A DNA stretch of 64,000 nucleotides from Psammoneis japonica (lineage: Eukaryota), in contig QPGO01000019.1 of NCBI GenBank assembly GCA_008632985.1, positions 62,001-126,000 on the forward strand, written 5' to 3'. The notes beneath the pieces are model-generated. The model searched no databases, had not been told where the DNA came from, and saw nothing but the letters and a program-made list of their open reading frames with translations. Below are positions 1 through 23,128 of this stretch, piece by piece; within the stretch, counting starts at the first letter, position 1; every line of letters begins with the position of its first letter. Position numbers and translations under genes: made by a program.

Positions 1-2097
1 TAATAAACAAGAACCTCCATGCCCACTTTCTAGCAGGTTTTTCTAACTGCAAAAGTTCACACGACAAACCATTTGCAAAAAGAAACAACAAACAATGGAG
101 CTGGCAAACAGAAGCTGTTTGCAATCGCTTTGCGAGGAGGTTGGCACCTTGCCGGGGCCATGACGAGGAGAGGTGCCCCGCCGGACACACACACTTTGGA
201 AAAAAGCATGCCAGAAAACCAGTTTTTGCACACATGTTTTGCTTGCGTGGTTGCCTGGAGCACAAACTGCATTTTTTGCCCAGCATGGTGCCAGCGGCAC
301 AGAGAAGGGAAAAGCGACAGCAGCTTGTGAGGGGGGGGTCATGATCATGAGCCACTTCAAATGGCTTTCTGAAACAAGAATGGCCCGCACCCCGCATTTT
401 CAAGCAAGTTGGCAGCCTGCTTGCAAAACAAGGCAGCTTCTGAACAAGCTTTAGCTGCTTTTTGGGGGCTGATCTGTGCAGCACCCATTTTGAGCAGAGA
501 AAATCTAAAAGTTGTCCATCTCCCCCCTCTCTGCAGCGCGCAAAAACTCTCTCACAATGTGCGCATGCCACACACCAGGCCTGTGCACAGGAGGAGTCAT
601 CAATGAGGGGTTTCAGCAAAAACCATGTTCAGCTTTTGCAGAGCAAACAAAAACTTGGGATTTTTCAAATTCTGCACACATGTTTCTGCCAAATCTGATC
701 AGCCAACAAAATCTGGGGTGCAGATTTTCTGCGACGCAGCACCAAGGCAAAGGCGGGCAGCAAGCAAAGCCAAGTCATCACCAGCACAGGAGAAGAGCTG
801 CTCACCACCAATGGCTGTCACAGCTTCTGGCAATGGCCAAGAAATGGTTTTGTGATGATGACACAAGCACATCTTTTTGTGTGATTTGCAGCCAGCCATC
901 ATCATTTTGCCATTCTCCGGGGGGCTTGAAAGAGGCAACAAAGTCACAGGGCACAGCTGGGCAGTCTTGCCAAGAACAAGGGTTGTGCCACAACTCCCTT
1001 GCCCGCAGCAGCCTCCACAGCAAGTGCTGCAAATTGGCTGGACCCAGCACCTGCTGTTTTGTTTGTGGTCATTGTGGCTGAGCCACAGCCCACTTTGACA
1101 TCATGGGGTTGCAACAGATTTTGTCTTGGAAGAGCATGCTGTTTCCACCCAACAAAAAGTGGACTGTGGCAGCTGCCAGCCCCACAATGCAGGTTTCATG
1201 CTGTTGGTCAAAGAGAGTTGAGAGCTGTGCAATGGATGCTGGGGTTGCAGCCATGAATGTCGTCAGCTCTTGAGGCTTCTTGGAGCATGAGCATTGGCTG
1301 GGATTTGAGAATTTGACAACATCTGGTTGCGATGACACAGCACTGGAAACCACAACAAGCTCATTGATGACAGCTCAAAGAAGCAACCTGCCTTCAAAGA
1401 AGAGCGGCAAGCGACCACACAAGCAGGGTCAAAAGAATGACGTGCCAGTTGTTTGTCAGAACAACCAGGACTTGCCGGTGGCGAACACTGGACTTCTTGC
1501 CACACGGTGCAGGGGGCTCAGGATCTTGGAGCTGTGGTGCAATTGCTGGGCAGTTCACGAACTCTGTGCTCCAGCACCCCGCTTCTGTTCCTGCTGCCGA
1601 AGGTCCCACGGCACAAAGCTGTGCTGGCCATTTGGAAAATTGGGGTGCTGCAGCCAGCGGTCAGGTTGAAAAAGAGCTTGTTTGGAAAGACCTTGATGAC
1701 ATCAAGAATGAGCAGTGACAAGTCCTTGTCCTCACCAGCAAAACCAGGCATTCGAGCTCGACACAAGCAAGGAGAGGAGTCATCCATCGCAGGACTCCCC
1801 AGTGGCTGCAATCCTGTGCAAAATGGGAGCCCAGCAGAGGATGCATCCAGTGAAAGTTCAAGGCCCCTTGTGGCAGAGAAAGATGTGGGAGCATTGCAAC
1901 AATTGATGACTTTAGAGCTGCTGCGGTCTCTCTTGGTCTGCACGAGGTGCAAACACTCAACAAATTGTGCTTGCATCGAACGAACAAGATCGCACGACAC
2001 CAATGAATCAGTGCAAGACCTGTCATGTTTCTTCCATCACTTGAATGATCAAGCTCTTGCCGTTTCTGAGCTAAAAAAAGAGAAACAGAAACTTGCA

Positions 2098-3402
2098 CAA
2101 CTGATGACACTGACGCTTTCGACCAGGTCATTGACGAATCGATCGAGATTGACAACCTCCGCGAGGCGATTCGAAGGGAATGTCCTGGTGCTCTCAAGGA
2201 GCGCCAGGAACAAGGACTTGTGCCGGACCTTCCTGCCGAAATTATCCTTTGTCTTGTGGACGAGAATGTCACCCAGCCAAGCATCAAGGGGGTCATTGTT
2301 GACATTGTGGCGAATCCCCAGCCGGACGTCCAGACTGCCGCGTGGCGCGAGTGCATCCGTGGCAGCTTCTCATGCACCAAAGTTCACTCGTGCATTGCAG
2401 CTTGGTGATTGCCCGAACACCTTGAGCTTGGGCTCAGTGGCAGCCACTGTTTTCTGCCCTTTGACAAGCGTGCATGGAATCGGTTCATTGGGCTGTCGGA
2501 GGATCCTCGTCGCTTTTGTCACGACTTTGCGTTGGGTTGGACCGCTTGCGATGGATCCATTTGCAACACACAGCCACTGATGAGAGTCAATGTATCACGG
2601 CGACGTGTTGCAGCCTTTAAATGTCACAAAGGGCGTGACAAAAACAACCTTTTGTCTGCATGCATGCTGCATCATGAATTCACAGCGGAGTGGTACATCG
2701 TGACCACTGGGCAGGAGGCCAGGGGTTCGAAACCCTGAGTGGGAGTTGTCTGCAGCAACGTTGATCACTGTCGAACGCGTAAAACTCTGTGCAGTTCTGC
2801 ACGTTCCTTCGTACGAACCCACACTGTTCCGCCAAAACCGTGCAGTGTCAGCACACGTTAGTAAAGAGCCGCATGGACGCGTGGTGCATGGGGAGGAGTG
2901 CAGTGCACAGCTGCTGACAAGAGCCAATGTGTCACGGCGACGTGTTGCAGCCTTTAAATGTCACAAAGGGCGTGACAAAAATGACCTTTTGTCTGCATGC
3001 ATGCTGCACATTGTTTGCAAGAGCAAGTTTGAAATCAATGTTCTCTGCGACGAGCGCTGGGTGTCCGTCAAGAACATGTTCAACAAGGCCTGCGACGACT
3101 GCTTTGGGATCAAGCCAAATGAATTTACCCAACTGAGCAGGGTCGAAGGTGGCAAGAGCATCACCACGTTGACGGTTCACAGCAAGCAGGACAAGCAAAT
3201 CCTTGGTCAGGCCCTTCTTCCTGTGGTTGGCGAACCAATGCTGCACTCGGCTGATGGAACCTGCCCCGAGCACAAGCGCTGCGTGAGCCGCCAGCGGATG
3301 AAGGATCTCCAGTTGACGGCGGCGATTGAAGACGATGGGTCCTTCACCTCGTCAGCCAACAAGGAGAATGTTGTGCCGCACGTGTGCAAACACCTGCTGT
3401 GA
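2098..3402 (+). pseudogene. TpA-mutated paralog of the 3' part of the gene at 16279-17987, interrupted by a small insertion
   Basis: Aligns to about 17155-17987 (DESIEIDNLREAIR, SEDPRRF, QALLP.VGEPML, ENV). Tyr codons read as Cys/His (EY>EC, FYYDF>FCHDF, AYDGS>ACDGS), and there is a TGA in place of TGG. Confidence 0.9.
2564..3013. mobile_element. 450-bp non-autonomous element with ~105-bp terminal direct repeats and an internal tRNA-like segment
   Basis: Direct repeats at about 2567-2671 and 2904-3008. Flanked by duplicated TTTG(CAA) at 2560 and 3014. Removing it restores the host reading frame (GSI-C-KSKFEI). Confidence 0.75.
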
Positions 3403-3942
3403 GCTGAAGCAACAAGCGATTGGGGCAAGAGAATGAAAAGACAATGCTGTGGAGGTTGGATCACGTGACGGTTGACTCGCCGACTTTGTGGGCAGTGCAA
3501 CGCACATGCAACAGCATTGTGGCATGACTGCATCTGGTTTGTTGCAGTTTTGCAAACTTGTGTGGCACAACGGATTCATCCCACAATTCAGCACAAGACA
3601 ACCCAGCAGTCTAGAGTGGTCGTCGAGGCTCCCCACAGCATGGAATGCTGAATGCAGGCACCAACTGATTCCACACTCTCTGGCAGCAAAGCTCAATCTT
3701 GTTGTGAAATTGAAAGGAACTGTGTGTCGCCAGCAAGCAAACTGAAACATGACAACTCTGCGTTTTTTGTGGTCAAATTCAAAACGGTTGATTCATGCAG
3801 CAGAAAGTGCTCGAATGACCAGGCGCAGGCATGTGCGCCAGCACGTTTCTCCACACTGATGAGAAATCACAACAAACAATGAGGAGACACATCCAAGAGA
3901 CAAGCAGGCAACACATCATTTTGCCCTGGCTTCTCGTGTTAA

Positions 3943-4403
3943 GGTGGTGCGGGTGCAAAAGTGGGCCAGATTCTGCGCACGTAGAGATCAGCATGTTTTC
4001 CGCCAAAGTTGGTTCGCCAACTTGAGCCCTCTCCCGGATGATGGAAACTTGGACATTTCACATGACAAAGTGCTTTGACTGCTTGGTTGCACTCCCCTCG
4101 ACTTGTTTGGGGAGAGAAGTTGCAAGTTTTCACAGGTTTCTGAGAACATGCAACGAATCTAATCAGAAAGGTGCCAAAATCGTGACGTTCAAGTTTCAAA
4201 GAGCCGTGCAAAATGAGAAACCTGTGGAAACTTGCAACTTCTCTTAACAAACAAGTCGAGTGGAGTGTAACCAAGTTGTTTGAACACTTTGTCATGTGAA
4301 ATGTCCAAGTTTCCATCGTCCAGGAGAGCTTTGGCGATTTGCGCAGAAAATGTGCTGAGCTCTGCGCACGTAGAATCTGGCCCACTTTTGCACCCGCACC
4401 ACC
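3943..4403. mobile_element. Fold-back MITE with TTAA target duplication (Kolobok-like termini)
   Basis: TIR GGTGGTGCGGGTGCAAAAGTGGG at both ends, TTAA at 3939-3942 and 4404-4407, and a further internal inverted repeat at about 4036-4141 / 4216-4321. Confidence 0.85.
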
Positions 4404-4904
4404 TTAAATGAAACAGCGCAAAACACAGCATGAGACACCAACAAGCAACGCCCCACGTCACAGTTTTCTCAAAAAATGTCATTCATTGCTCAAGGGGATG
4501 TGGCTGGGACAACTCGACATCACGCAGAAAAGACTCTTCTCCCTGTTTGTAAGAGCAACATTCTCATGTCACATCAGACATTGTCTTGTTTGAGGAATGA
4601 ATGACATTTCTGCAGTGTCATGTCAAAATGGACATGACTTCATTTAGAGAAAAAAAACCATTTTTACAGTGTGGATTTACTTGCGTCACCTCATGCATGG
4701 CAAGGTGACGCAAGCAAATGACACTGCATCACCTGCCCACAAATGTCATTTCTGCAAAAACAATGTCTGGCCACACTGAGTGCAGGAGTGCACCAGTTTT
4801 GAGGCAGAGGATGCAAGCTTTGGTGCATGAGCCAAGTGCTTGTTGTGCATGATGGATGAAGAGTGTGGTGATGCCATTTCAAAGTTCAGTGCTGATTGAG
4901 AGAA

Positions 4905-5273
4905 AAGAAATGGACAACAAGATCTGAGCTTGGTGCAATGGCCAAGGCAACCCCGCCAAGCACGAGCATCAGCAAGAGCAAGGAAGGTGACAAAGGATGC
5001 AACAAACCTTGAGCACAAGAAAAGCTGTCAGCTTTGCTCTTCATGCTGAACAAGATCCCAGCTTGGTGCAATGGCCAAGGCAACCCTGCCCAGCACAAGT
5101 CAGTGAACAACAAGGTGACAAAGGATGCAACAAACCTTGAGCACAAGGAAAAAGCTGTCAGCTTTGCTCTTCATGTCGAACAAGACCCCAGCTTGGTGCA
5201 ACAGCCAAGGCAACTCCGCCAAGCACAAGTCAGTGAAGGAGGTGACAAAGGATGCAACAAACCTTGAGCACAA
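4905..5273. repeat. ~128-bp tandem repeat (about 3 units), continuing at 12386-12505 after the copia insertion
   Basis: Repeated unit aaagctgtcagctttgctcttcatg...ggtgacaaaggatgcaacaaaccttgagcacaa. Confidence 0.85.
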
Positions 5274-5549
5274 TGACAGAAAATGAAGGCAAATGGCAAG
5301 AACTCAAACAACAACTCCTTGCTGCTGTCTAAACAGCAGATGAGTCTCTGCTCAGAAACCGTTGCAGGAGCCGAAAGACGTGCAAGTCGGTGCAATCGGG
5401 CCACTGTCATCATTCTTGTGAGCCTTGTGGCTCGAAAGCAAACTACATCGCATGCGAACGCGCGGAACTAAAGCACACAAAACTGTGTGCGGCAAACTAA
5501 ACAGCGCGCGATGTTTTGCGCGCACCCAAATCCTGTTCAAATCCTGTCA
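5274..5549 (-). repeat. 3' LTR
   Basis: Direct repeat of 12110-12385 with TG...CA ends. Confidence 0.95.
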
Positions 5550-8500
5550 CTCCCCAGTTTGCTTGAGGAGTCACAGAAACAGATTCGACTTCGGATGGAA
5601 TGAAGTTCCAGAACATGAGGGGGCGGAGAAGGTCCCAGATTTGGGAGTGACCCCAATGCTTGCTGAGAATGTCAGCAGGGTTGCGGGAGCCTTCGATGAA
5701 GTGGAACTCAAGGTGACCAGAGGCAATTGCCTCACGCACACGGTGGAACGACAGTGCGGTGTGTCGCTTGTGTAACTTGGAGTGCGGGATGGTGGCACTG
5801 TCTACAACCGACTTGTTGTCACCGAACATGTAACTGACATTGCGGATCGGGACGCCAAGGTGGCACAGGGTGATGCGCAGGTCAACAATCTGCTTGACAC
5901 AAGTCCTTGCGGCAACAAATTCAGACCCGCAGGTCGCAGTCTCCACGGTGGCTTGCTTCTTAGAGAACCAATCAGCCGGGAATTTGTTGAGGAAGTGGAG
6001 CATTCCCATGACAGAGCGTCCGGTGAGCATGCAATGGTGCAAGTTTGCATCAACGTAGTGGGTGGCAGTGATGAACTTGCCAAGGGGCAGTGGAGCGTCC
6101 TTCGGGATCATCTCTTCTGCTTCGCCGCACACGGAATGCATCCATTCACAGGCCGGAGCAGGGAGATCCGAACAGTCGGGCTCTTCCGTGCGAACGCGGA
6201 GAGCGCCGTGTCGCATCTTGGAGAGGTGCCCACAGACGCGTTTGGCACGATCCAAGTGGCCTTGACGGGGTGCAGCTCGGAAGCTAGAGAGTGACATGAC
6301 GGCCGTGGCAATGTCAATTCGACCAAGGGACACTGCCCATTGGAGTGAGCCAACAAGAGACTGGAACTTGTGAATGCCATCGGGCTCCAGCAGTTCGGAA
6401 GTGTCCAGTTCGGGGTGGTCACCCTTCTCCAGAGGTGACAGGGCGTTGGTGGTGGGTTTCTCCCCAAACAGTCGGGTGCAGCTGTCGACCATGCGCTCGA
6501 TGCACTTGCGCGGAGACAGGCACAAGGTGCCGTCGGGATCCCGGGAAAAGTCGCAACCCAGATGGAACTCAATGGGTCCCGCACCCTTGAGCTTGAACTT
6601 GCACTTTTCCGTGAGAGTGTCGACGAAAGATTGAGGGTCCTTCGTGGCAATGGCGAGGTCATCCACATAAACGGCAATGCATTCACAGTGGTCGCCGTTC
6701 CTGCGCATCCAAATGTTGGGTTCGGCGCGGCAGGAGAAGAAGCCTTCAGCTCGCAGGCAGTCGGCGAAGCGCTCGTGCCAGCGGAGACCGGAGCTGCGCA
6801 GTCCACACAGGGCCTTGTGGATGACAAGGATGTGTCCTTCGAGTTTGCCAAATTTGGGTCCGGCTGCAATGTAGAGCTTCTCCTTGGTGGTGGCTTCAAG
6901 GCAGGCATTGCCAATGTCGGTGGCCCATGTCTCCAACTCGTTGAGTTCGGCCAGGAAAATCATCAGCCGAAGGCCACAGAGGGAGACCACTCCGGAGTGG
7001 ACACTGTCGATGGGTACGTCCGTGAGGTGCCCATCGGCTGCGAGTCGTGCCTTGTGGCGACCGTTGTGTTTCACGTCGAACACCAGGTGCACTCAGATCT
7101 TCTTGTGTCCAGCAGGAGGAGTGGAAGACTCGAAGGGCCCGCAGTCATGGAAGACTTCGTATTCCCCGAGTTGGTCCATCTCGAGATTAGTTGCGTCTCC
7201 CCATTTGCGGTTGCCGTTGCGTTCGTCCAGTGACATGGCGTGTTTGCAGTTCCGGGGAACTTCGCATCCGTGCTTGCAGCGAGGTGCAGTGCGGAAGGAG
7301 CGAAGCTTGGCTTGGTTGGCCATGCGAAACAGCTTCTTCTGGCGCCTCGCGATGGCGCGGAACCGCTTCCAGCCATCAGTGTCGAGAAGTCCGTTCTCTC
7401 GTGCATGGATGGCGCAGGTGACGGGGTCATCCTTGGCGATGATGGCAAGAGGCTCGGACGTGATCTCCCCACTTTCCCATTCAAGCATGATGTTGTAGCT
7501 TGAGCCTTTCCAGGTTGGGTCATGAGGCTTCAGAGGTCCTTCGTGTGACACGATGCGTCGGAATTTCCAAACAGCAGCGTCTTCGTCTTCTTGCTCAATG
7601 TGATTCATGATGTCGTTGCAGGCAAGGACTTCCTCGCATTCGTCATTGTTGACAGAGCAGACGAACTCAGTGAGCTCGGGATTGCCGTTCACTTTCCATT
7701 CGTGGTCTTCGACGGCCTTGACGATGCGAGCTCTGTGGCGTTGTCCGTCCTCTTGTGGCTGCATGAGGAAGGTGCGTCCGATGATGTCTTGCGGATCGAA
7801 AACTGGCATCTTGGGTGTCCTGATCTCCCCATCAGGAGAATCGATGGGGTTGTCGTCATGGCGAGATTTGATGATGGGTTCAGGTGGCTCCCCATCAGGA
7901 GGATCAAGACGCAGGTTTCGAACGGCAGGATCGGTGGCAGCGGATCGTACATTGGACCGGCAGAGGATCTTCTGAGTCTCATCAGAGAGAATCTTGAAGG
8001 GCATCTGGTGGCCGACATGCTCAGCAATGCCAACAAAGCGTCCACGCAACTCACGGGATTCGGACGGCCAATCAGAGTCATCGAGGTGGAAGCACACGGG
8101 TTCCCACCAGTGAAAGCGAAGCAATGGGCTGATGTCCGGGGTGGAGCCAGTGAGAGTCTCGAGGGGCGTGCGCCAGTGGAGACGTGGGGATGCTGTGTGG
8201 TTGAGTGTGAAGCACACGCACATGAGCGCCAGCAGCCATGTGTGGGCAGGCGAACTGAAATGATCCATGACAGTGTTCGCCATGCGCTTCACGGTCTGGT
8301 GTCGACGCTCGGCAAAGTTTTGGTGTTGCTGGTGAGGCTCACTTTGCCAGCTGGAGATGAAGAGGGCTCGTAGAATCCCGAGCACCTTGTTGCTGATCTC
8401 AACTTGAGCACGGTTGCCAATGAGTTTGGATGGGGCACCACGCTCACGGATCTGATCCTCGAGTGTGTTGACAAACTCCTTGTCCGTCTTGGTGCGCAGA

Positions 8501-11170
8501 CGTCAGTGACGGTAGACTCGGTGCCAACAAACAGTTGGGCGCTGGTGCAACCAGAGTCGACGGCCGGAGTGTCGGCATGAACGGCGTCAGTGGCGATGGG
8601 CTCGTTGCGGCGGTGCACATTGAGGGCGGGGTTGGGTGATTTGTGGGCCTTCCCAAGGTGTGCACCGGCGGGCATGCGGGCGTGCTGCGTGGTGCAGTCA
8701 AAAGTACGACGGACCGCATCGGCAGGTGGGAAGCCAAAGCAAGGCCGAAGAGACTCGAAGGGGGGGTCCTTGGGTTGCACAGTGCGCTCCGGGGGCGGGA
8801 CGTCGTCGTCCTTGGGGTCAATCGCGTGTAGATGACACTCGTAGAACACGTCGTCGTTCGGAATGAGGTGATCATCGAGGGCTGACGCGTGATCGGCAGA
8901 CAAGGAAGCGGACATGATGGTCTCGTTGACAACGACACGATGACGGCAGTTGCCGCATTCGTCAAACAGGTTGGCAGTGGGATCGTCCTGCAGGTCAGAG
9001 ATCGCGTCGCACCACTGGTCGTCGTCAGTGACAGAGTGATCGAGGACGGAAGGATCCCATGTGTCATCACCGGTGAGGGTGACATGGGGCAGGGTGTCCC
9101 ATTCGGCGTCAGTGTGAGGTCGCACAGCAACACAAGGCAGGCCGCCCTTGATGTCAATGGGGGTGACACAGCCATCAGGGGTGGCAATGCGTTGCAAGCC
9201 GTTGGGCACCTTGACAGAGCGATCGTTGACATCCTGTTTGCACCATTCGAGCTGGCCGCAGGAATGGATGGTCTTGCCCTTGCCCGTGCATGCGCACTGA
9301 TGGAGGATGGTGATGATGGGACCACGCTGGGTCTCAATGACGGCACCAGCGGTGACAATGGGGATGTCCACCAATTGATGGTCGTCAATGCCCTGAACGT
9401 CGACTTGGCGAGAGGTGCGTGCAATGACGCGAATGTCGTCGCCAGCAATGCCGCCGCCATTGGCCCCACGATTGACTGGAGCACCAGCGCGTGTGGAGCG
9501 ATGAGCAGAGGCAGAGCAAATGACATTGTGATTGTCAACGCGGCGGCAGGTGTGGCCGTTAAGTTCCATGTCATCGGTGGGAGCTGGCGGAGTAGAGGGA
9601 GCGGCGGATGGCCCCGGTCGACTAGCGTTGGGGGCTTGGTTGGGAGACAACAGACGTCGCAGATCACCGGGTGGCAGTGGCTTGCGCTTGGTGAGGTGCG
9701 CCAGGATGGGATTATCTGAAGTGGCACCCACATTTGGAGCGGGGTCACCAGAGGCAGCAGGAGTCGTGTTGGACAAGTTGACATCACCGTCACTCCCAAG
9801 GCGTTGGTCGTGAAGGTTGGCCGTGATGGACTCATGGCAGTTGCTGGCTCATGGGTTGCGGGGAGGCGGACGAGAATGCCCAAGGATGATCGCCTTGGAG
9901 GAATGGGGCAACGAATCCCAAATCCGTTGGTGGTCGGGAGGGAGACGTTTCCATTGGTCACCGGTGAGGCTGGGACCACGGGTGCAGGCAGCATTGGCCT
10001 GAAGGACGTCAATGTCGCTGTCAATGTCGTAGAACACATCATCGGACGGTTCCTCGGAGCAGACGTCGTGTGCGTGTGTGGCGCGTCGGGGAGCTCGAGG
10101 TGTCGTCTTGGGTTGAAACGTGCTGTCGCATTGAGCTGCCATGGAGCGGAGCAAGCCACAGCATTGATTGCATGTGAGGCTCTTGCCACTCTGCGCACGA
10201 TGCTGATCAGCTTGGTTCTTGACAGCACGGAGTTCCTCGACAGGGTGTGCGGCATTCTCGAGCATGACGCGCTTCTGTCCTTCAGAGAAGTGGTCGCTGG
10301 CCGGGATGAGTGCCTCGCACTTGCGCAACTGATCTTGCCAATGAAGGATGAACCCGTGGGTCAGACCTTTCCAAGCACCATCACCAAGACGTGCAGCGGT
10401 GAGGTGCGTGAGCAAGGTGGAGGACTCGACAGATGTGCGGGTGGAGGCAAGTGCATGCTCAGACAAGGCACGGTGGACAGTCTGGGCGTCAGAAGACCCC
10501 ACATTTTCGCGGATGAGAGCCTTGCCCTTGTCGGTGAGAAGGATGCATTCGAAGACGGCGAACATGTGCTTTTGCTGTTCAGCAAAGAGCAGTTTGTCTT
10601 CGGGGCTGGTCGGTTTGTACGACGAGTCTAGAATGCACTCGACGTCTTGGGCACGGGCTTGTGCCACAAGTGAGGTGTGCCAAGTGCACCACTGCTTGTC
10701 GGATTTGAGAGCCGTGAAAGCGGTGGGATCACGCTTGATGCCTCGCTTGTAGTCTCGCACCGGGTCGCGTGCCTTGGTCGGGTTGGTGACATGCGGAGGT
10801 GCGAGGGGTGAGCTGCCGATGGACACAGAAGACATGCAGTCGGGGCTGAGGCGGCAGGCAAGGAACTCGTCATGCATGAACAACGAGGAGTCATTGGCAA
10901 CGTCAAGACCTTCGTGTGCTTTGACAATGTGCAGACCAACTAGAGCTGCTAACATGTTCTCATAACCGCGGGGCAAAGGGATCACATCAGTGCCGTTGTC
11001 GTGCTCAAGCGAGTCAATTTTTGGGATGGCATGAACGTGAACAGTTCTTGATGCGAGTCCGTGCCGTCTTGGGCCAAAGCCAAACGAAGAGGGCTCCCAG
11101 CACCTTGGGCAAGCACGGTTCCAACAACGTGCTCGAAACCATCGGTTTGTTGCTGACGAGTGAGAACCAT
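5550..11170 (-). pseudogene. Copia gag-pol polyprotein, disrupted
   Basis: Gag (YKRGIKRDP), protease-like NRGANGG, integrase (SEPHQQHQNFAERR), RT (IAVYVDDL) and RNase H (YVDANL, GSEFVAA, GDNKSV, NPADILSK). Split across several ORFs by frameshifts and a stop. Confidence 0.93.
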
Positions 11171-12109
11171 GGCAGACAAAAGTGGTGTCAGGACAAGCAA
11201 TTCTTGTTGGGAAGCGAAGGCAGACTTGAAACTTGGGTGAGAATGGGCTTGACTTGAAATGGACTTGACTTGAAATCTTGAACTGCCTCAAAATCAGAAG
11301 TCGCCGGGCTGCACTGTCCCGTTCGTTGTCAAGTGCTAAACTTCCCATCCGGTCCGTAGAGTTGTGCCGGCACGTCCGAACCTGCAGCCAGTGGCGCTTT
11401 GGGTTGCTTGCGAGCGGAGCAGCGGGTTGTAAACCCCTGCAGGTGAGCTGACCAGAGGTGGACAAGACCCCCGAACCGTTCTCATTTTGTGTTGGTTGGA
11501 TTTCCCGATCAGGCTGGCCAGTTGACGCAGGCGTTGGGCGCTGCGGACGAATGAACAAACACGGGAAAACACCCTCGCCCCAACGCAGGCTGCAATCACG
11601 GTTGCTTGCTCTCACAGTCGTCCTCGTGGACCTGGTGGAACTGTGGAGCACCAGCAGTCCGGGGCAGATCAGGTGCAATGGACTTGGTGTGCTTGCAGAG
11701 TGGCAGCAAAACCGCAGTCCGAAGAGTGGGCACAAGTTCTTGGCCGTGAAGATGTGCACATGTGTGCATGTCTTCAGCGACGAAGATCCTTGAATGTGTG
11801 GGGTTCTTGACCGTCAACCATTGAACGGGTGTGTCAAGGGATGAGGATCAAGGACAGACTTGGATGTGACCGTTGAATGCATGTCTTCAGCAATCAAAGG
11901 CAGCACAATCAATCCAGACATCCAGCGGCAAGGAGACTTGACGGTGACGTTAACTTCCTGCCGATGCCCTGGTGTTGAATGCACGCAGACTTGCCGATGT
12001 GCGTAGAACATGTGCGGAGGTCCACGCAGAATTGACACAGCATCGTCGGTAAATCAATGACGACGATGGCGGTTGCTCAATGGGTTGACAATGAGCAAGA
12101 CTGTTAATC

Positions 12110-12385
12110 TGACAGAAAATGAAGGCAAGTGGCAAGAATTCAAACAACAACTCCTTGCTGCTGTCTAAATGGCAGATGAGTCTCCGCTCAGAGACCGTCA
12201 CAGGAGCCGAAAGACGTGCAAGTCGGTGCAATCGGGCCACTGTCATTGTTCTTGTGTGCCTTGTGGCTCGAAAGCAAACTGCATCACGCGCGAATGCGCG
12301 GAACTAAAGCACACAAAACTGTGCGCGGTAAACCAAACAGCGCGCGACATTTCGCGCGCACCCAAATCCTGTTCAAATCCTGTCA
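12110..12385 (-). repeat. 5' LTR
   Basis: Direct repeat of 5274-5549. Confidence 0.95.
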
Positions 12386-14124
12386 CACAAGAAAAAAGCT
12401 GTGTCAGCTTCACTCTTCATGCCAAACAAGATCCCAGCTTGGTGCAGCAGCCAAGGCAACCCCACCAAGCACAAGTCAGTGAACAAGGTGACAAAGGATG
12501 CAAAGAAAGCAGAGGTTCAGGGACTTCTTGGGTTTCTGTCAAAAGCAAAAAGGGCTTTCTTGAGGATCACAGAGTTTCTCAAGATGCTGGAGCTGCTCCA
12601 AAATGTTGACAACTGGAGCTGCCACAATGCAAGTGTCCTGCCACATGCTTGTGGCAACTTCGCCTCAATGGACGAATTGATGACACAGTCAACTTTGAGG
12701 TGAGTGACGATGTGTTTTCATCCCAGGTGAGAAATGCGCGTGCGGAGGTGAGACGTTTCGTCTGTCCCTTTTCCATCGCCGTGCTTTTTGTGAGAGCAAA
12801 TCTGACTGGACTTTCCCCCGATTTTTTGTTTCTTCTTTCCACAGACATGTTTATTTTGAAAAGCCAGCCGTTGTTCTCATTGGTTGAAGGGTGCGCACAA
12901 GAAAAGCGCTGTCTCGAAAGCGGCATTTTTTGGAGTGAAACTGACAGCCATCTGCTCGTTGTTGTCACTCTGGTGCATTTGAGAGACTGTTCTGCTGTTT
13001 CTTTCACCGAATCTGACTGCTTTGAAAGAATGCACGCATTGTTCATTGTGTGAAGAGCTCATGCCAAAAAGAACGGCGTTCTAACTCTGTCATTTGCATG
13101 AGAAAAATCGGGGGAACTGACTTCGCACGTGATTTTTTTGCGCGATCGGCCATTTCAAAGATCGACTGATTTGTCAACCTGTGTGGGATGCTTGAGTGAA
13201 TGAAACAATGGGATTGAAATGGCAGCATCAAAGTTCAATGTGTGTCCAGTCATTGTGTGATTTGACATGCCCAAGTGGAGTTAAAGATGAAACATTGACA
13301 AAATTTCACCGCTCAAAATGACCAGTTCTGTCTTAGAATAAAACAAAATGGCTGCAACACTGAGATGTCGCTGATGGTGTTGTTCTGCTTTACAACAATG
13401 AAACCATCACACTTGCATCTGAGATTCTTTGTCCTCACACACCCTCAAAACCAAACACATGACAATTCTCTTGTCGGTGGCGAAATCTGATGTTGTCGCG
13501 CGACCCAAAAGCGTTGTCCATGACGACTCAAAGTGCGGACGACACATCACAAGAATCACAGCAACGTGTCATAGAAACATTCTTCATTGTCAGCATCCGG
13601 TGTCAAGCAGATGGAGCAGCGCGTTGATGAGAATCCCACTTCGCAAGCTGAGGAAGAGAGAAAGAGGCATCAAAAATGTCATGAGTCAAAAGGCCATCCA
13701 CAAGGCACAACAAAAAACAAAGATCAAATTTTCAACCACATCATCGCATTGAGCGTTGTCTCATTGACCTGTCTCGGCATTCTTGCTTCTCAGTCACAAC
13801 ATCCATTGGTGCAAGAATGGACGAGTTCATGGCGACGGCATGGTGCCATTTTCGGTTTGCGCGAATTGTGGTTTGTGGTTCGAGACATGGAAAAATGTGT
13901 TTTCACTGTCATGGAGCTCGTTTTTTACTAAGATTTTTGGCACTGAATGTACGTCTCATGTAGAAACACGTAGAAAACCTCGTGATGTGTCCAAAAGTTT
14001 CTCACCTGGGATGAAAACACATCTGACACCCAAAAGGTCACAAAGAAGTGCTTGATTTTGCTTTGCAAACAAAAGCAAGGTGATCAAAAAAATGTGTTAG
14101 AAAAAGTGAGATCGTGTCCAGACC

Positions 14125-14735
14125 AGCAGCTTCAGGGTTTGGTGTTGAGTTTTTAGATGCTGCACTTGGCATTCTGTTGAACTGTGCCACCTTGTGACAT
14201 GGTTGTAAAAGGTGGAGAAACACGGTGTCTGCACCTCTCCCGCCACAAAGTCATGGTGGCAAAAAATGAGGAGCAGAGGCCAAGCTTTTTTGCACTTTTG
14301 TGGCCATGCAGCAGCTTCAGGGTGCAGTGTTGAGTTTTCAGATGTTGCACTCAGCATTCCATTGAACTGTGCCACCTTGTGATGTGATTGAAAAAAGTGG
14401 AGAAATGTGGTGTTTCGGCACCTCTCCCGCCACAAAGTCATGGCGGCAAAAAATGAGAAGCCAAGCTTTTTTGCACTTTTTTGTGGTGGCCATGATGCAG
14501 CAGCTTCAGGGTGCAGTGTTGAGTTTTTAGATGCTGCACTCAGAGCCTCAGCATTCCATTGAACTGTGCCACCTTGTGACATGACTGTAAAATGCAGGGA
14601 AACACTGTGTTGGCACCTCTCTCGACAAAGTCACGGCGGCAAAAAACAAGGAGGAATGGAGGTCAAGCCACCCCACATTTACACTGCTCTGCAGTGGCTT
14701 CAGGGTGCAGCACTGGGTTTTAAAAAGCTGCATCT
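14125..14735. repeat. ~185-bp tandem repeat, about 3.3 units
   Basis: Repeated gcagcttcagggtgcagtgttgagtttt...gaactgtgccaccttgtga...gcacctctcccgccacaaagtca. Confidence 0.85.
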
Positions 14736-15020
14736 GGCTTTCTGTTCAAGGTCAAAATCTCACTGGCTTCGAAAAGTGAGCTTTGGAACGAATCTGATCA
14801 CTGCAAACGCAACATGAGATTAGAAACAAGAATCGAACCCCAGGCCTCTGCAGTTTTCTCATTTTCTGCGAAGCGCGCTGCCGGCACCACTGAGCTTCCT
14901 CTTCACACCAAGAAATTGCGCAGCCAAGACGCAAGCAGGTCAAGCACCAGGTCCACAGAGCAACACACCCAGTCATCATAAATGTCCGGTGTTGTCACAG
15001 TGCTGTACATCCCTGCTCAC

Positions 15021-15331
15021 GCACACGAACCACCTGGTGGTCCGTGTGCATTTTTGGGTGCACACGAACCACCTGGTGGTTCGTGTGCACCCTGCGCGAA
15101 ATGCTGCGTAGATTTGCACCGAACAAATCTGAGTGCTGCAAATCCGACATGGGATCTGCGTGTTTGTGCCACTCAACACTGGCCACCGAGCCGGCAGTCT
15201 GTGCCGGCCGTCGTGAAAAATATTTTGTGTCAAAGAAAGAGTTCGTCAGGGCCGGTGAAGAACACCCCACTGCGATGCGACCGGCACAAAATGTGCGTAA
15301 ATGCACAGGAACCATCATGTGGTTCGTGTGC
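15021..15331. repeat. Three copies of a ~29-bp hairpin-forming motif
   Basis: GCACACGAACC-N7-GGTTCGTGTGC-like sequences at 15021, 15060 and 15303. Confidence 0.7.
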
Positions 15332-16278: not shown

Positions 16279-17987
16279 ATGGCTCCTGCTACCGGAAAGC
16301 GTCAAGGCTCCCTCGGGTGCCCTTGTAAAGGATGCATGTATTACTTTGGTAAATCGTTAGACAAGGCAGAGCGCACAAAGGGCGCAAAGATTCTTTGCAA
16401 GTTCTGCAAGCCCTTCATGGAGAAATCGTTGGCTGACGGTGTCTTTGAAGACGACACGACGGAGGCACTCTTTCGAGTTCTCAAGCACTATGAGCAAAAG
16501 AAGCACATGTCGAAGCTCCCATGGGTATTGAAGAATCAAAAGACTCTGAAAGAAAACAAGGTGTAAGTAATCAAGTTGTTTGCAGTTGTCGTATCATTTC
16601 ATTCGTCATCTCAACGAGTGCCTTCTGTTCGTTCATCAGCGAGTATCGAGCAAACTCGAGTCTCAAAAAGAAACAAGATCGCGATGAAGTCAGGGAACTG
16701 AAACTTGCCGGAGACCTCAAGGGTGTGGTCGAGAAGGCAAAAACGAGCGCACCGGCAAGACGTGCACAACAGCTTCGCGAGACGCTCGAGCGGGCAGGGC
16801 AATCCACGGACAACCTTGACGGTATGAAACTCCTTGCGACCAAATACACCAAGTTAGCTGCATGCGCTGCTACTGACGCAAGCTTGAACGTGTGCGAAGG
16901 CCAATTCATCATCGTCATGAAGGGTGCGTCCGCCGACAGTGCTAGGGCAGCAGCACTAGACGCTCACGAACTACGAAACGTCGTTTACTTGCACTCCCAC
17001 AAGCACGGATTTGATCCACACAAGCTTCCTACCTTTTCCCATTCCATTCGTTTTGGTATATGCAAGTGCGCTGCTGACTTGTACGAAGACCGGTATGATG
17101 ACGAAGACGAAGAGAATCCACTCCGAAACTCCAAGCTCCTCAGGAAGTGCTTCAGTGCTGACGATACTGATGCTTTCAACCAGGTCATTGATGAATCGAT
17201 CGAGATTGACAACCTCCGCGAGGCGATTCGCAATGAGTATCCTGGTACTCTCAAGGAGCGCCATGAACAGGGACTCCGACCTGACCTTTCTACCGAAATT
17301 GTCCTTCGTCTTATTGATGAGAACATTACGAAACCAACCATCAAGGCGTTCATTGTTGATATAATGACGGATCCCCAGCCGGACGCCCAGACTGACGTGT
17401 GGCGCGAGTGCATTCGGGGCGGCTTTCTATACACCAGTGTTCGCTCGTCCATTGCGGCTTGGTGGTTGCCCGAGTATCTTGAGCTTGGGCTTAGCGGTAG
17501 CCATTATTGGTTGCCCTTTAACGAGCGCGCATGGAATCGGTTCGTTGGGCTATCGGAGGATCCTCGTCGCTTTTATTATGACTTTACGTTGGGTTGGGCC
17601 GCCTACGATGGATCCATCAAGCCTTGGGGGTTTCAAATCATTGTTCCCTACGACGAGCGTCGGGTATCCGTCAAGAATATGTTCATCCAGGCCTACGGGG
17701 ACTACTTTGGGATCAAGCCGTATGAGAGTTCCAAAATGACTAGGGTCGAAGGTGGTAAGAGCGTCACGTACCTAACCGTTCAACGTAAGCAGGAAAAGCG
17801 AGTCATTGCACAAGCGCTTCTTCCTACGGTTGGTGAACCAATGTTGCTTTCGGCCGACGGAGCCTACCCCGAGCGCAAGCGCTACGTGAGCCGCCAGCGA
17901 ATGAAGGATCTCCTGTTGATGGCGGCGATCGAAGACGATGGGTCTTTCGTTTCGTCCGCCGACAAGGAGAACGTTGCGCCCTACTAG
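16279..17987 (+). CDS. Unknown protein; N-terminal CxxC...CxxC, C-terminal possible LAGLIDADG-like domain; 2 exons
   Basis: Exon 16279-16562, GTAAGT...CAG intron 16563-16639, and exon 16640-17987 join in frame. Normal Tyr and TpA content. Confidence 0.8.
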
Positions 17988-19378
17988 TGAGATGCTCGTG
18001 TCGGGGCTTGGGAAACGTCTTTGAGATTGTCTATAGGACACGACTGGATTTGTGAGAAACAAGAATACAACAGAGAATGGTACAAGTGCGTATTGGGCAT
18101 GGGACTTACGCATTGTTGGTTGTACCAATGCATGTGATGCCAAGAGTCTATTCGGTCTACTCTTGGCGATGATTGTTTACTGTAGCTTGTGTAAACTAAT
18201 CATTTAGGAATGGTCGAGAAGATGCTTTATTCGTATTGTATCTCCACAGAGTAATGATGTAGTTTTGTAAAGTTGTAAAGCACAACAGATGCAATGCCGA
18301 GCCAACCGTAGCACAGCCGTTTCGTTGTTAACAAGCACTTGGTCTCTACTCGACAAGTGAGGCACCGAATACACGCACAAGCTTGTTCCGCACCCTCCCT
18401 CTGGTAGTGAAGCTGAGTCTTGTAAAATTGAATGGAACTGTTCATTAGCAAGCAATTTGAATTATGATAGCTCTGTAGCAACATTCCGTCTCAAAATGGT
18501 TGGTTCATGCAGTAAAAAGTCGTAGTATATGACCAAGCGCATGTACGTACCTAGCACGTTTCGTTGACTCTTTCTCTACACTGACGAGAAAGCACAACAA
18601 ACTGTGAGGATATATATCGAAGAGACAAGGCAGGCAACAAATTCTAACATTGCTTAACACTACCATTCGACTGCAAAACAATATGCATGCTGGTAGTGAC
18701 ATAAACATCGCGCCGTATGCAGAGCAATAAAACAACATCAACAGTAGCCACAGTGACAGTGAAATGAGAAAGATACGGATACAGTAATTGACGACTTTAT
18801 CTGCACGAGGCACAAGGACTCATTAGATTACGCTGATATCGAACGAATAAGATGACATGACACGGACGAATCGGTGTAAGACCTGTCACATTTCTTACAT
18901 GACTTGAATGATCGAGATAAGTAGTTAGACTTACGCATTCCGCACTGTATTGTTACAGAAGGTGTCAATGCCTTGCCTTTTTTACGATAGAGTACCTGAG
19001 GGCCTCTCATGCACGATTGAAGTGGACTGATAAAGTACATAATGAAAAATGACAAGAGGTTCGAAGGTGGTGTGCCGCAGATGCAAGATAGATCTGTATC
19101 GATCGTAGAAGATAGTGCGGAGTCGCCACGCACGCACCGCCGGAACTAGTATATTGGAAATATTGTGTAAGCACATACTGAGATTCTACGAAAAATAAAG
19201 AACCTATGTTCATTTAAATAAGATTGAAATTAAAAAGTGATACTCCGTGCGTTAGACGCGCAAAATATACTGGAACACGTAGAATTCTACGAGGAATTTC
19301 TCAAAAACCATTGAAAAGCTGGCATCGTACGGTACCCAGGTTTTTAAAAGCCAAAATTTCAATGAGAAAGAGTTGTTG

Positions 19379-19450
19379 TCACCTCTGGCGCAATGGCAGC
19401 GCGTGTCACTCCTAATGATGAGGTTCCGGGTTCAAATCCCGGGTGGTGTT
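19379..19450 (+). tRNA. Degenerate tRNA-like sequence (anticodon CCT); pseudo-tRNA or SINE head
   Basis: D arm GCGC-AATGGCA-GCGC, anticodon arm TGTCA-CTCCTAA-TGATG, T arm CCGGG-TTCAAAT-CCCGG. The acceptor stem has two mismatches. Confidence 0.65.
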
Positions 19451-19599
19451 TAACTTCCTGTTTTGCAACCATGGGAAATCACACACCGCACTTTTTTACA
19501 CGAAAGCAGTGCGCTGCACACATCGAGCTTTTGCTCCCAACGACAGCTGCATCTGCTCAAGGCAGTGACTGCTGATGCACAAAAAGCAGATGCCAGCAC

Positions 19600-20900
19600 A
19601 AGTGCAAGCACCTGCCACCTCAGCAGGCTGACAAAACCAAATTCGAAAACCACCAGTGTGTGTCCTTTGAGTCTGTGCCAGACCCTTGTGCAGGTTGTGT
19701 CTTCTGAGTGCCATCTAAAGAGCACATCTTGTGCTGTTGTCCATTCTTTGGCCACTCGTCCTCTTCCAGGAGTTGACCCCAGCCTGTGGTGAGCTGCACT
19801 TGGGGGCGGCTTTCCCAAAGCATCGGACTGGCAAAGTTGTCATTGACAACTGACCAAAAGGTTGCAACGAGCTGGCTGTGCTTTTGGATGGTTCCCAAAT
19901 TGCACTCACCAGCCCTGCTGCTGGACTGTTCTCTTTGACCTGCTTTGCATGCTCCCTGATCAACTTGCTCTGCTTCGTCAAAGCCTCTGGGCACACTGGA
20001 GTGTGGAGCGCATCTTTGTCTTTCTTGTCACAGGAGTCAGGACATCAAGAGTGATCTTGGACTTTCCACCTTTCTTCAACCATTTTCCCATTTTGCGCAT
20101 GCCTGTGGAGTGCTTGGCAAGCCACCAGCAGTGCCCTGTTGCCAGCTGGTTCACAACTCTGTCGATGGCCCCGGGGCTCCCAGATGACACTCTCTGGAAA
20201 CCATCTCTCACCAACCTTCATTTTTGTTGGACCCAGCGTTGACAGAGTTTCGCGCCACACAAGTGATTGAAAATTTGTGCCAGAAGCTTTGTCAAGATCT
20301 TGCATGCACTGGCAAATGCTGGCAATGTTTTGTCTTGCACCAAACATTGTTTCTGTGTTGGCCAGTTGCAAGTGGCATGTTGCCATCCTTGCTTTTGCAA
20401 GATCATCCATTTCTGTGTTGAGACGTGCCCAGCACCTGTCTGACTTGCATCTTGGCCTTGAACCTTGAGGATCTTTGACCCATTGGCTCCAGTGGGGTGT
20501 TCTCTTGGCCAGTTTGTTCTTGGCAGTGCTGGGCAAATCAAAAAAGTGATTGGAGCATGGCATGACTGGCTTGCATGGATCCAACATTCTGGTGAGCACC
20601 TGGGGTCAGTGCTGGGGTTCTTTGGGGGTTCTTGCTCTCTGTCGCATGCCACCTCAACTGCTCTGCGGCAGCTTGGAGATCAGCACATCTCACACTCCCA
20701 ACACTGCACACTCCAGCTTCAAAATCACCCAAGCATCATCAAGAAAAAGCTTGCCAAAGGTTCATTCCCAGCACAATGTGGTGAAAAAAGAGTTGACAAG
20801 CAGATCTCAAATTCTCCCTGGCACTCCTGAAGCCCAGGTGATGCCAATTTTTTCTGCTCAGCATGGCAGCTCCTCCACTTGTTTGCAGCGTCTTGTGTGC
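19600..20900 (-). mobile_element. Heavily degenerate non-LTR retrotransposon 3' region (RNase H-like / Cys-rich tail)
   Basis: Residual peptides WVKDPQ...DRCWARLNTEMDDLAK and WWLAKHSTGM..GKWL resemble LINE RNase H and C-terminal motifs. The tract is almost TpA-free. Confidence 0.5.
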
Positions 20901-21049
20901 CACATCGTCAAAGCTGGGTTTTTTTGTTGAGGACTCTGCAGCTTCCAAATGGTGCTGGGGCACACAGGCATTTGTGCAGCGCAAATTTGTGCTGAACTTT
21001 GCCTCTGTCAAAAATTGGCACCTCTCCTGGCACTCCAGCTGATGTGACT

Positions 21050-22154
21050 GATGCACTCCAGCCCTGAGCGCAACTCATCCATTTGGTGTTGGGCACCTGC
21101 GGAATTCCACATGTTGCAATCTCCATGCCAAAAGCATTTGGGCAATGAACTTGTTGACAATTGCCAACAGAAAAAGAGGCAATTTTGTGAAAGCACAGAC
21201 TTGCTCATGCTTGAAGTGCATTGTCTCCAGCTTCACATCAAAGAATGCCCCCAGCCAATTTCTGTTCTTGCAAATGGTCATAACATGAAGCCTTTGGCTT
21301 TGCAAAAACAGGGAGCATGGGACAATTTTGTAGAATGGTGCAAACAGAAATGTGTGTGAGTGACATGTGGCACATTGTCAAAAAAAAACTCTCTTGTCAC
21401 AGCCCAGCAACACCAGGCCCCACTTGAGCTGGAGTGCATCAGTCCTGGGCAGGACTCCATGTGACACTTGGCTTGCAAGACTCTGCTGCATGTGAAGAGC
21501 TCTGCAGCAAAACTGTTGGGTGATGAGTGCCGATGTGTCAAACATTGCCAACAGAAAAATGTCCATTTTGCAAATGCTTGAACACACACTCGTGCTTGTG
21601 GCACATCATCTCCAGTTTGCCTGGGTGTTTTCTTTGGACATTTTGGAAAATGCTCGCAGCCAGCTGTGTTGTTCTCACAAGTGCATCATAAAAAAACTCT
21701 CATGTCACACAGCCCAGCAGTGCAAGGTTCTCTTGCCCAGAGCTGGAGTGCATCAGCCCCGCCCTGGGCGGGACTCCATGCGATGCAGGCCAACAGAATT
21801 CTGCGTGCAAAGCTTCGTGGTGGTTTGTGTGCTGGGTGACAAACAAATTTGTCTTGGGCATCTGAACAAACAACCAAGTTTGCAGCACAGCTGCACCTCT
21901 TCACACTTGCAAGTTTTGAAAATCTGCCTGCACCGCAGTGCCACTCCACAAAAACATTTGAGGTTGGCTTCTTCATGCAAAACACAATGTTGTTGCTTTG
22001 AGCAGATTGCCAAATGGCTGAGCTGCAAGCAAAACACCACTGAGTTTGTGCAAAAATGCACGTGCATGACATGTGGCACACACAACAACAAAAACACCAG
22101 CACCGCGGTCCGGCAGCATGACATCCCACACCTGCTGCGAGACTGGAGCGCATC
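21050..22154 (-). mobile_element. Tandem array of about 3 decayed copies of the 390-bp MITE family
   Basis: Units end in ctggagtgcatc / ctggagcgcatc (about 21440, 21754, 22154) and share ttgccaacagaaaaa and gaattctgcgtg with the copy at 43943-44331. Confidence 0.65.
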
Positions 22155-23128
22155 GCACGCAGAGCCGCTCTCCCATTCTTGGTGCCCCACCCATGAAAGA
22201 GCAAGGTGGCTGGGTGTCATTGAACCCATCTGTTTTGTTGCAGTGGCACTGCAGCTCATGTTTTGTCACTTGTTTTTGTGGCGCAAAAGAAAAATTTCAA
22301 CGTGGCTCAAACAAAGCCGTGCCGTGAGCTCAGCCAAAAGAGAGACACTTTTTGGCAGCAAATGATGCACAACAATGCCAAGACCTTGCAGGCACCCCTC
22401 CCTCCTCTGTTGCTTTGTGTTGTGTTTCATGGCACTGGCATGTGCTGCAAAGCTCACTTTGGATTTTGAGCGCGGGTGTGAAAACTTGTGTGTGTGCGCG
22501 AGACAAGCAAAAACGCAGGGTGACTTTGGTGTTTGGTGAGAGAGCAGATGCTGCAGCACTGTGTGGTGGAAAAGAGAGTTGGTGGGGGAGAGCTCCCCCT
22601 GCTTTCTGATGAGGATGCTGTGTCCGTGTGTGCCACCCAGCAGTTTTGGGCACATCGCCGGCCCACAACCAAGGCCCAAAAAAAGCAACTTGAGACGAGG
22701 GCCAGTGCTGCTGTCAGCACACCACCAACAAAAAATGGTTGGGGTTGGTTGCACACTTCTCTGTTCCACCTTCATGTAAAAAAGGCGACATCTCTGTCAA
22801 GGATGCCTTTTTTGCCTTTGCCAAATGCTTCTGTCTCTTTTTTCGACGTCACATGTCAATCTGTCGACAGTGAAGACGGTCATCTGCTCTCATGCTTTTT
22901 TTCGTTGCCCCAAAATGTCCATCGATCTGTCATCAGTGACTTCGGACAAATCTTACGGATCATCTCGTTAAATGTTTCAGGTTTCAGAACTGCACCATGA
23001 AATCAAGAATGGATCAAAAGAATGCGAACGATGCGAGATGCAAAAAGCCGATTGTTTGATGCCTTATCGTCGCTCACACAATGTAACATACGTGAAAACA
23101 CACAAACGAAACATACTCTTTCCTGAAT

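Follow-up and report, generated by a model that had tools for sequence, protein, structure and literature searches.

We describe the nearly complete loss of the dinucleotide TpA from discrete blocks in a 64,000-nucleotide stretch of the genome of the diatom Psammoneis japonica (GenBank assembly GCA_008632985.1, contig QPGO01000019.1, positions 62,001 to 126,000 of the forward strand). This whole stretch is termed the window, and positions are counted from its first letter. The best-resolved target, at 5274-12385 on the minus strand, is one dead full-length long terminal repeat (LTR) retrotransposon of the Ty1/copia type that belongs to a very abundant family. Its loss of TpA, which became TpG or CpA, took place after integration and was several-fold faster than the decay of CpG. 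Taking all lines of evidence together, we consider it likely that TpA is converted to TpG or CpA in integrated DNA, within silenced blocks, by a base-modifying enzyme that is recruited to them, as a genome defence resembling repeat-induced point mutation (RIP).

The element was assigned to Ty1/copia on account of its RVT_2-type reverse transcriptase (RT), the TG...CA ends of its LTRs and the 5-bp target-site duplication. Pfam recognised RVT_2 in the RT frame with E=3.6e-22 and 79.6 bits (cut-off 31.6), and a protein database returned 3006 homologues of this frame, the best of them 63-70% identical; the nearest relative with a named source, from the diatom Cylindrotheca fusiformis, shares 67% identity. 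Since the LTRs are flanked on both sides by an intact CACAA duplication, the element is a single insertion, and one unit of a tandem array (period about 130 bp) is split by it, each half forming one flank. A preliminary description of this DNA had rightly seen an element here, but its extent of 5550..11170 has to be enlarged to 5274-12385, from LTR to LTR. Intact relatives encode a single polyprotein of about 1850-1980 amino acids, to which the frames upstream of RT in the window align. No Pfam integrase domain was detected in the window frames or in three intact relatives, RVT_2 being the only domain found in both. A frameshift lies near 8470-8494, and part of the other copies of the family have an extra C behind 8494. 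The term "recoding" that had been applied to this element is therefore misleading: what is seen is the mutational decay of a dead copy with a frameshift and in-frame TGA stops. Off-frame and antisense frames of 260-300 amino acids were also found to stay open across 5274-12385, where TAA and TAG are nearly absent. Such long spurious frames occur in all phases because TAA and TAG are nearly gone on both strands and TGA is left as the sole common stop. The predicted conversion of stop codons into Gln or Trp codons is consequently visible in an indirect form only, as 23 TAA and 31 TAG versus 288 TGA over both strands of the element.

Seven peptides had been singled out as lacking an expected Tyr, and all seven were located in the minus-strand frames 7092..5497 and 8502..7093. 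These frames were compared with two independent reference sets; in set 1 a column was regarded as conserved when at least 80% of the sequences agreed. Set 1 consisted of 120 listed homologues (out of 3006 matches in all) of the RT/RNase H frame, of which the 46 longer ones were usable for the upstream frame and provided 106 conserved columns there; set 2 consisted of 29 intact polyproteins of at least 1500 amino acids from metagenome loci. With set 1, the RT/RNase H frame of the window agreed at 261 of 295 conserved columns, Lys being kept at 14/14, Asn at 6/6, and His, Phe and Trp throughout. Conserved Tyr was kept at 2 of 15 columns and replaced at the others by Cys (8), His (4) or Phe (1). 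The upstream frame kept 97 of its 106 conserved columns and one of four Tyr (2 Cys, 1 His). When both frames were pooled (401 columns), Tyr was retained at 3/19 columns (10 Cys, 5 His, 1 Phe) versus 355/382 for the non-Tyr columns (Fisher p=1.3e-14). Set 2 gave the same picture, with 442 of 485 conserved columns kept and Tyr at 3 of 22 (15 Cys, 3 His, 1 Phe). Overall composition agreed as well: the window frames contain 0.52% Tyr, 3.56% Cys and 5.08% His, and the 29 relatives 3.91% (range 3.08-4.87), 0.93% and 3.51%, respectively. We conclude that the loss is specific to Tyr, real and far beyond chance. Every Tyr codon (TAY) contains TpA, so that loss of TpA turns Tyr into Cys (TGY) or His (CAY). 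The preliminary description had proposed this very change, and TAY>TGY/CAY does account for the substitutions: Y>C/H prevails in the alignment to homologues, and copia relatives normally carry Tyr at the affected columns (in 86-100% of the 120 sequences). Whether relatives have Cys or His at the same positions was looked at, and this was not the case. A parallel excess of I>M/V/T had been anticipated and proved minor, conserved Ile being changed at 3/10 columns of the RT frame with set 1 and at 0/19 with set 2.

The loss of TA in the copia Pol region had thus been correctly perceived, but it is restricted neither to Pol nor to the element. The coding part of the element contains 33 TA in 6317 bases, or 5.2 per kb, versus 46 per kb (range 30-77) in the 29 relatives. 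When the window was cut into 1-kb bins, these fell into two classes of TA content, and segmentation yielded seven depleted blocks that amount to 28,850 nt, about 45% of the window. In the blocks, rho was 0.09 for TA, 0.58 for CG, 1.60 for TG and 1.63 for CA; in the remaining 35,150 nt the corresponding values were 0.58, 1.01, 1.18 and 1.17. The copia element itself has a rho TA of 0.11 and an overall rho CG of 0.82, and across the bins inside it rho CG ranges over 0.8-0.98 at a rho TA of about 0.1. Most block edges could be resolved to a few tens of bases, and the change is regionally confined, as is the hypermutation described in Bigelowiella natans. Besides the retrotransposon, the process hit the surrounding tandem array, further repeated DNA and pseudogene-like duplicates. 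All host genes that Pfam recognised in the window sit in DNA of normal TA content: acid phosphatase, cold-shock domain, thioredoxin, BCNT, CGL160, cupin, discoidin, beta-helix/MYND, DUF7467 and RdRP. The genes of the window are long uninterrupted frames, and one host gene is 23% identical to a relative from another diatom, Amphora coffeaeformis.

The polarity and specificity of the change were read from a self-comparison of the window, in which three sequences are each present once in normal and once in TA-depleted form (six alignments). Where the normal copies have TA (97 sites), the depleted copies have 48 TG, 35 CA, 4 conserved TA and 10 other dinucleotides; TG and CA, the products of a transition at TpA, thus account for 83 of the 93 changes. 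Among the 192 CG of the normal copies, 81 were kept, 44 had become TG and 44 CA. All other dinucleotides were kept at 57-83%, with the lower values at steps sharing a base with a TA. In AA, GA and CA steps the second base changed from A to G in 2-6% of cases, versus 49% in TA steps. None of the 24 Tyr codons of the normal copies was kept (16 Cys, 6 His, 1 Asn, 1 Thr). As the paralogue pairs show the same pattern, Tyr>Cys/His is seen outside copia with the ancestral state preserved in the same window. The GLUG-motif gene is duplicated without its middle 868 bases, a stretch that is open reading frame, not an intron. The fragments derived from the RdRP gene lie 5 kb from it and are interrupted at 39842-40231 by a copy of 38864-39253. 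The parent gene copy was spared in each of the three sets; homology alone, as in RIP, would hence not suffice to designate a target, because the intact copy of each duplicate escaped. Two other candidate processes were considered and rejected: general A>G hypermutation, as Lys and Asn are retained, and GC-biased gene conversion, as TA steps alone are affected. A tendency of TG and CA outcomes to form strand-coordinated runs was weak and suggestive at best (permutation p=0.32, 0.05, 0.11 and 0.10). Survival by tetranucleotide ranged from 0.013 for ATAT up to 0.47 for CTAA/TTAG, a measure confounded by composition.

These outcomes bear on the nature of the attacked base. A thymine-side chemistry would consist of a TET/JBP-type oxidation of T at TpA in silenced DNA, producing 5-hydroxymethyl- or 5-formyluracil that mispairs with G and results in T>C. 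TpA being palindromic, it would account for the near-equal numbers of TG and CA products (48 to 35). Dinoflagellate DNA carries 5-hydroxymethyluracil in place of T, with a preference for TpA and TpC, and 5-formyluracil promotes mutations of the T>C type. In the paralogue pairs, however, TpC was unaffected, TC being kept at 143 of 183 sites, like the background, and nothing in the analysis shows such a base in the organism. We regard this chemistry as unlikely.

The timing of the loss could be followed in the two LTRs, which differ at 22 of 276 positions. Fifteen sites are CG in both LTRs and seven are CG in one versus TG or CA in the other. Two sites are TA in both, one is TA versus TG, two are TA versus CA and four are TG versus CA, which makes seven sites discordant in their TA/TG/CA state. 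From the CpG counts, decay of a CpG in both LTRs is expected at about 0.8 sites, half of which (about 0.4) would be discordant. Most of the four TG-versus-CA sites are thus former TA that were hit independently in each LTR, because CpG decay predicts about 0.4. By these counts each LTR has lost about 0.7-0.8 of its TA versus about 0.19 of its CpG. The earlier impression that TpA loss outpaces CpG decay was borne out by these values and by the paralogues, where 4/97 TA versus 81/192 CG were kept. Since the two LTRs of an insertion share one template, their differences post-date integration, and the TA loss occurred in integrated DNA.

An editing of the RNA genome or of its complementary DNA (cDNA) before integration, by an ADAR-like enzyme on double-stranded RNA or by a deaminase on cDNA, was weighed against these data. 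ADAR prefers a 5' U/T neighbour, as stated in the accessible part of a preprint on B. natans (Mettrop et al. 2026, bioRxiv 10.64898/2026.01.13.699255), the entire transcribed unit of the element is affected, and some sites are unaffected in other copies of the family, all of which would suit such editing. Yet it should have left the same edits in both LTRs, and these are discordant at TA/TG/CA sites in spite of their single template. Nor would it explain why the tandem array around the element is TA-free too, why both strands were hit, or why gene duplicates unrelated to retroelements are TA-free, including a GLUG fragment that adjoins its parent and whose missing stretch is not an intron. We therefore hold a pre-integration origin to be very improbable.

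As controls, 80 metagenome loci that encode relatives were surveyed, none of which had a rho TA below 0.31, compared with 0.11 for the element; the median, read off the sorted list, was near 0.63. The lowest values (0.31-0.33) belonged to loci L064 and L067, whose CpG is undecayed. L064 has 13 Tyr, 9 Cys and 4 His at 27 Tyr columns and L067 has 7 Tyr, 6 Cys and 12 His at 31. Among 24 listed loci these two alone displayed Tyr>Cys/His, the others having at most one Cys, and the same pattern was found among the 120 proteins from the database in P0103 and P0023. The TA process thus seems to occur in other hosts or samples, where these four records would have caught it midway. Conversely, loci L004, L009, L010, L020, L051, L073 and L007 have a rho CG of 0.10-0.24 and ordinary TA. 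Where Tyr was counted, it is kept despite the CpG decay, at 28/32 columns in L004 (rho CG 0.23), 28/32 in L010 and 18/28 in L073. Judged by their dinucleotides, loci of the L004 type are cases of methylation-type decay without the TA process. Because relatives with strongly decayed CpG retain Tyr, TA loss is not a general consequence of methylation, and it is evidently a property of particular hosts.

The same records speak to a repair by-product. T:G mismatches arising from the deamination of 5-methylcytosine in methylated repeats could be subject to error-prone patch synthesis or to an over-eager T:G-to-C:G repair that would convert TA into TG or CA, and it is true that CpG decay and TA loss share the same blocks. 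Polymerase eta, a candidate for such patch synthesis, has a WA hotspot, and very short patch (VSP) repair has been proposed to underlie the loss of CTAG in E. coli. Against this, TA loss is complete where CpG has barely decayed (rho CG 0.82 and rho TA 0.11 in the copia element), L064 and L067 retain their CpG, and relatives in other hosts have CpG decay without TA loss. Furthermore, AA steps were not hit and the changes at TA are almost only transitions. A repair by-product is in our opinion highly unlikely.

Other copies of the family were observed in four public sequencing runs of one sample that contain the stretch, from which contigs were placed on 4500-16500. Summed word depth was about 63 in the unique flank, 53,000-108,000 in the element interior and 156,000-191,000 in the LTR bins; depth so far above the unique flank identifies a very abundant family, although it does not count copies. 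Transitions account for 330 of 366 variant places in run X1. Among the 40 places listed of 397, three (6503, 7272 and 11665) have TGC or CAC in the window but TAC in 62-90% of contig depth, so that other copies of the family still encode Tyr. Contigs also matched the TA-poor low-copy parts 4518-4747, 5124-5269, 14362-14524, 14776-15040 and 15332-16500 with 0-1 differences.

Two further explanations meet their evidence here. Copies of so abundant a family could share inherited states, as would follow from a TA-poor master copy or from a selective avoidance of TA, for example to escape a nuclease. But such a master would not have its conserved Tyr destroyed in RT, RNase H and the upstream part, nor carry stops and a frameshift. 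At these codons other copies have TAC, the divergence of the LTRs at TA sites came after insertion, and unrelated sequences of the window show the same loss, which makes this origin hardly credible. As to an artefact of sequencing or assembly, some platforms are prone to biased calls where a base is modified, and systematic miscalls at a modified base in repeats might be imagined. The contigs from the public runs nevertheless match the TA-poor low-copy parts almost perfectly (though these may not be independent data), Tyr>Cys/His recurs in the unrelated records L064, L067, P0103 and P0023, and the loss is at least 90% with sharp edges. We give this explanation almost no credence.

The reading that we prefer, loss of TpA after integration through a recruited enzyme, comprises the following steps, of which those up to the CpG decay are shown by the data. 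Once the element had integrated, nearly all TpA of its DNA was removed by A:T>G:C transitions, appearing as TpA>TpG or, from the other strand, as CpA. The same process struck discrete, mostly sharp-edged blocks, including duplicated fragments of host genes, and left untouched the expressed-looking genes, among them the parents of these fragments. In the same blocks CpG decays to TpG or CpA in the manner of 5-methylcytosine, at a slower pace. That both changes share their blocks suggests a methylated, silenced compartment, and the blocks may well be such chromatin; diatom transposons are CpG-methylated by DNMT5a according to the accessible part of PMC9998398. A base-modifying enzyme would be recruited to these blocks, most likely a polynucleotide adenine deaminase of the TadA/ADAT2 kind that forms inosine at 5'-TA-3' on either strand. 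Such a deaminase would give exactly the observed spectrum. The accessible part of the B. natans preprint proposes an ADAT2-like deaminase for that alga and cites reports that BjADAT2 and TbADAT2 act on DNA (bioRxiv 10.64898/2026.01.13.699255). The function would presumably be a genome defence like RIP but of opposite chemistry.

Several observations weigh against this reading or narrow its basis. On its right side block 1 does not end in a single step: within 15477-15970, TA is normal at 15477-15727, then zero for 240 bases and then normal again. No Pfam domain, terminal repeat or copia remnant was found in the other depleted blocks, which are thus not classifiable as transposons. The reads come from a single sample that may be the source of the window assembly, and the codon readings cover 40 places out of the 397 that vary. 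Four sites carry the TG-versus-CA argument from the LTRs. A simple +1-base context model, derived from tetranucleotide survival, did not hold at Tyr codons. Moreover, TpA is palindromic, so that an attack on A and an attack on T are indistinguishable, and both the deaminase and its link to silencing are inferences from sequence. Extending the reading beyond the window is a more tentative matter: diatoms, and perhaps protists of the SAR group (stramenopiles, alveolates and Rhizaria), might possess a chromatin-guided DNA adenine editor acting at 5'-TA-3' in silenced repeats as a defence, a mirror image of fungal RIP that erases more than 90% of TpA before CpG decays and shapes a large share of the genome. 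We put this forward as a possibility that at present has somewhat less in its favour than against it. The coordinates of the features are collected in the table below.

Features of the window (coordinates in window positions; copia element, TA-depleted blocks and normal-TA partners of depleted copies)
Feature	Position	Strand	Remarks
Target-site duplication CACAA, left copy	5269..5273		flank ...GAGCACAA then TGACAG; identical 5 bases after right LTR
3' LTR, 276 bp, TGACAG...CTGTCA on + strand	5274..5549	-	22/276 positions unlike 12110-12385
RT/RNase H frame, 531 aa (amino acids), TAG end at 5497	5497..7092	-	Pfam RVT_2; 13/15 conserved Tyr lost
Frame upstream of RT, 469 aa, presumed C-terminal part of integrase plus linker, closed by in-frame TGA at 7093	7093..8502	-	3/4 conserved Tyr lost
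Middle frame, 519 aa, shifted by one base relative to the following frame	8289..9848	-	junction of two tblastn segments (frames 2 and 3)
Gag-like N-terminal frame, 654 aa, closed by in-frame TGA at 9849	9849..11813	-	44% identity to N-terminal part of the intact polyprotein of locus L001
5' LTR, 276 bp	12110..12385	-	LTR comparison
Target-site duplication CACAA, right copy	12386..12390		matches left copy
Tandem array, period ~130 bp, host site of the insertion	4916..5273, resumes 12391-12524		TA-free; 0 TA in 4801-5200
Block 1, copia and other repeated DNA	1..15300		edge less sharp, ~15300-15970; read depth above unique level to ~15700
Block 2, unclassified, rho TA 0.04, rho CG 0.33	19351..23050		no Pfam domain, no terminal repeats
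Block 3, partial duplicate of the GLUG-motif gene just upstream	26501..27750		segmentation and self-comparison
Block 4, copied pieces of the RdRP gene (45280-47172)	39201..41050		weak RdRP match 40427-40834
Block 5, unclassified	43001..44750		segmentation
Block 6, unclassified, rho CG 0.32	48601..51100		segmentation
Block 7, unclassified, rho CG 0.20	60051..62550		segmentation
Open frame, 497 aa, normal TA, no Pfam match	16494..17987	+	TA-depleted paralogue 2101-3377; aligned part 17158-17980
GLUG-motif frames, normal TA	23096-26199	+	aligned 24601-26346 versus depleted partial copy 26551-27480 directly downstream
Eukaryotic RNA-dependent RNA polymerase (RdRP) gene, normal TA	45280-47172	-	Pfam RdRP E=2.4e-15; aligned 45042-46251 versus 39291-40905

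Three other features of the window were recorded. At 3939-4407 the sequence and its reverse complement align over 488 columns with 77% agreement, forming a long imperfect palindrome in TA-depleted DNA. Repeat units of about 185 bp that are 74-82% alike stand in tandem at 14124-14732, in TA-depleted, CpG-poor DNA. A 429-amino-acid frame with a KOW motif and internal repeats (47324-47833 and 48091-48373) lies on the minus strand at 47258-48547, and a large protein search returned no homologue of it.

To our knowledge, the mutational genome defences known so far, RIP and APOBEC, deaminate cytosine. Only recently was a process that removes TpA through A:T>G:C changes described, from a single rhizarian alga in which the long-term trace is mild. 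The window is a further case of this very new kind of hypermutation, and what stands out in it is the saturation of the process and the presence of internal clocks. It presents the end state, saturating and sharply bounded, in a retrotransposon, satellite-like DNA and pseudogene copies. If our reading is true, the phenomenon reaches an ecologically dominant group, the diatoms, and a simple sequence diagnostic becomes available, namely a rho TA of about 0.1, Tyr>Cys/His and TGA as the only stop. LTR pairs and gene/pseudogene pairs would then serve as natural clocks for its rate relative to CpG decay, and a natural DNA adenine editor together with its targeting signal would be directly testable. 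It is also to be noted for genome annotation that TA-free DNA has long open frames in six phases, which are open to miscalling as genes.

Among known systems, the element itself resembles the CoDi elements, diatom Ty1/copia-like elements that, in the accessible part of the defining paper (Maumus et al. 2009, PMC2806351), likewise have an RVT_2-type RT, TG...CA LTR ends and a 5-bp target duplication; the words hypermutation and dinucleotide do not occur in that part of the paper. No report of TpA hypermutation in diatoms was found in the literature searched, which did not cover subscription journals. The process shares with APOBEC, which acts on LTR retrotransposons and retroviruses through a deaminase, the outcome that copies of retroelements are killed by hypermutation. 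APOBEC, however, converts C to U on minus-strand cDNA and thereby produces strand-asymmetric G>A changes before integration, whereas the changes in the window are A:T>G:C, on both strands and after integration. With ADAR and with TadA/ADAT2, including the TadA-derived adenine base editors, the proposed mechanism would have in common the A>G change via inosine and the preference for a 5' U/T. The substrate of ADAR is double-stranded RNA, in contrast to the integrated DNA to which the LTR evidence assigns the change.

RIP in Neurospora and other fungi is similar in that a dinucleotide-specific transition hypermutation inactivates transposons in place within sharp unit limits, usually together with methylation. 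The two processes run in opposite directions, since RIP makes TpA from CpA and the process in the window destroys TpA. Under RIP, moreover, no copy of a duplicated sequence escapes, whereas in three paralogue sets of the window the gene copy was spared; C>T changes at CpA that create TpA in all copies are not what the window contains.

The closest counterpart is the TpA-restricted hypermutation of integrated viral DNA in B. natans, for which the accessible part of the preprint (bioRxiv 10.64898/2026.01.13.699255) gives exclusively TpA>TpG/CpA changes, arising de novo in 11 of 15 mutation-accumulation lines and in two viral inserts. There, the region of nucleocytoplasmic large DNA virus (NCLDV) origin is transcriptionally silent and mildly depleted, with a rho TpA of 0.45, and 124 clusters were counted in about 95 Mb. 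The long-term trace consists of a low TpA together with a high CpA+TpG, and coding sequences with low TpA are enriched in reverse transcriptase and DDE domains. The spectrum and the regional confinement are shared. As to a de novo activity limited to some lines, the one hint from the window is that copies of its family differ in state. The process in the window differs from that of B. natans in being known from its sequence traces, in its targets, which are an LTR retrotransposon, a tandem array and pseudogene copies, and in its association with CpG decay. It differs also in extent: with a rho of 0.09 over 45% of 64 kb it is saturating, and TA-depleted DNA is far more pervasive in the diatom window than in the rhizarian.

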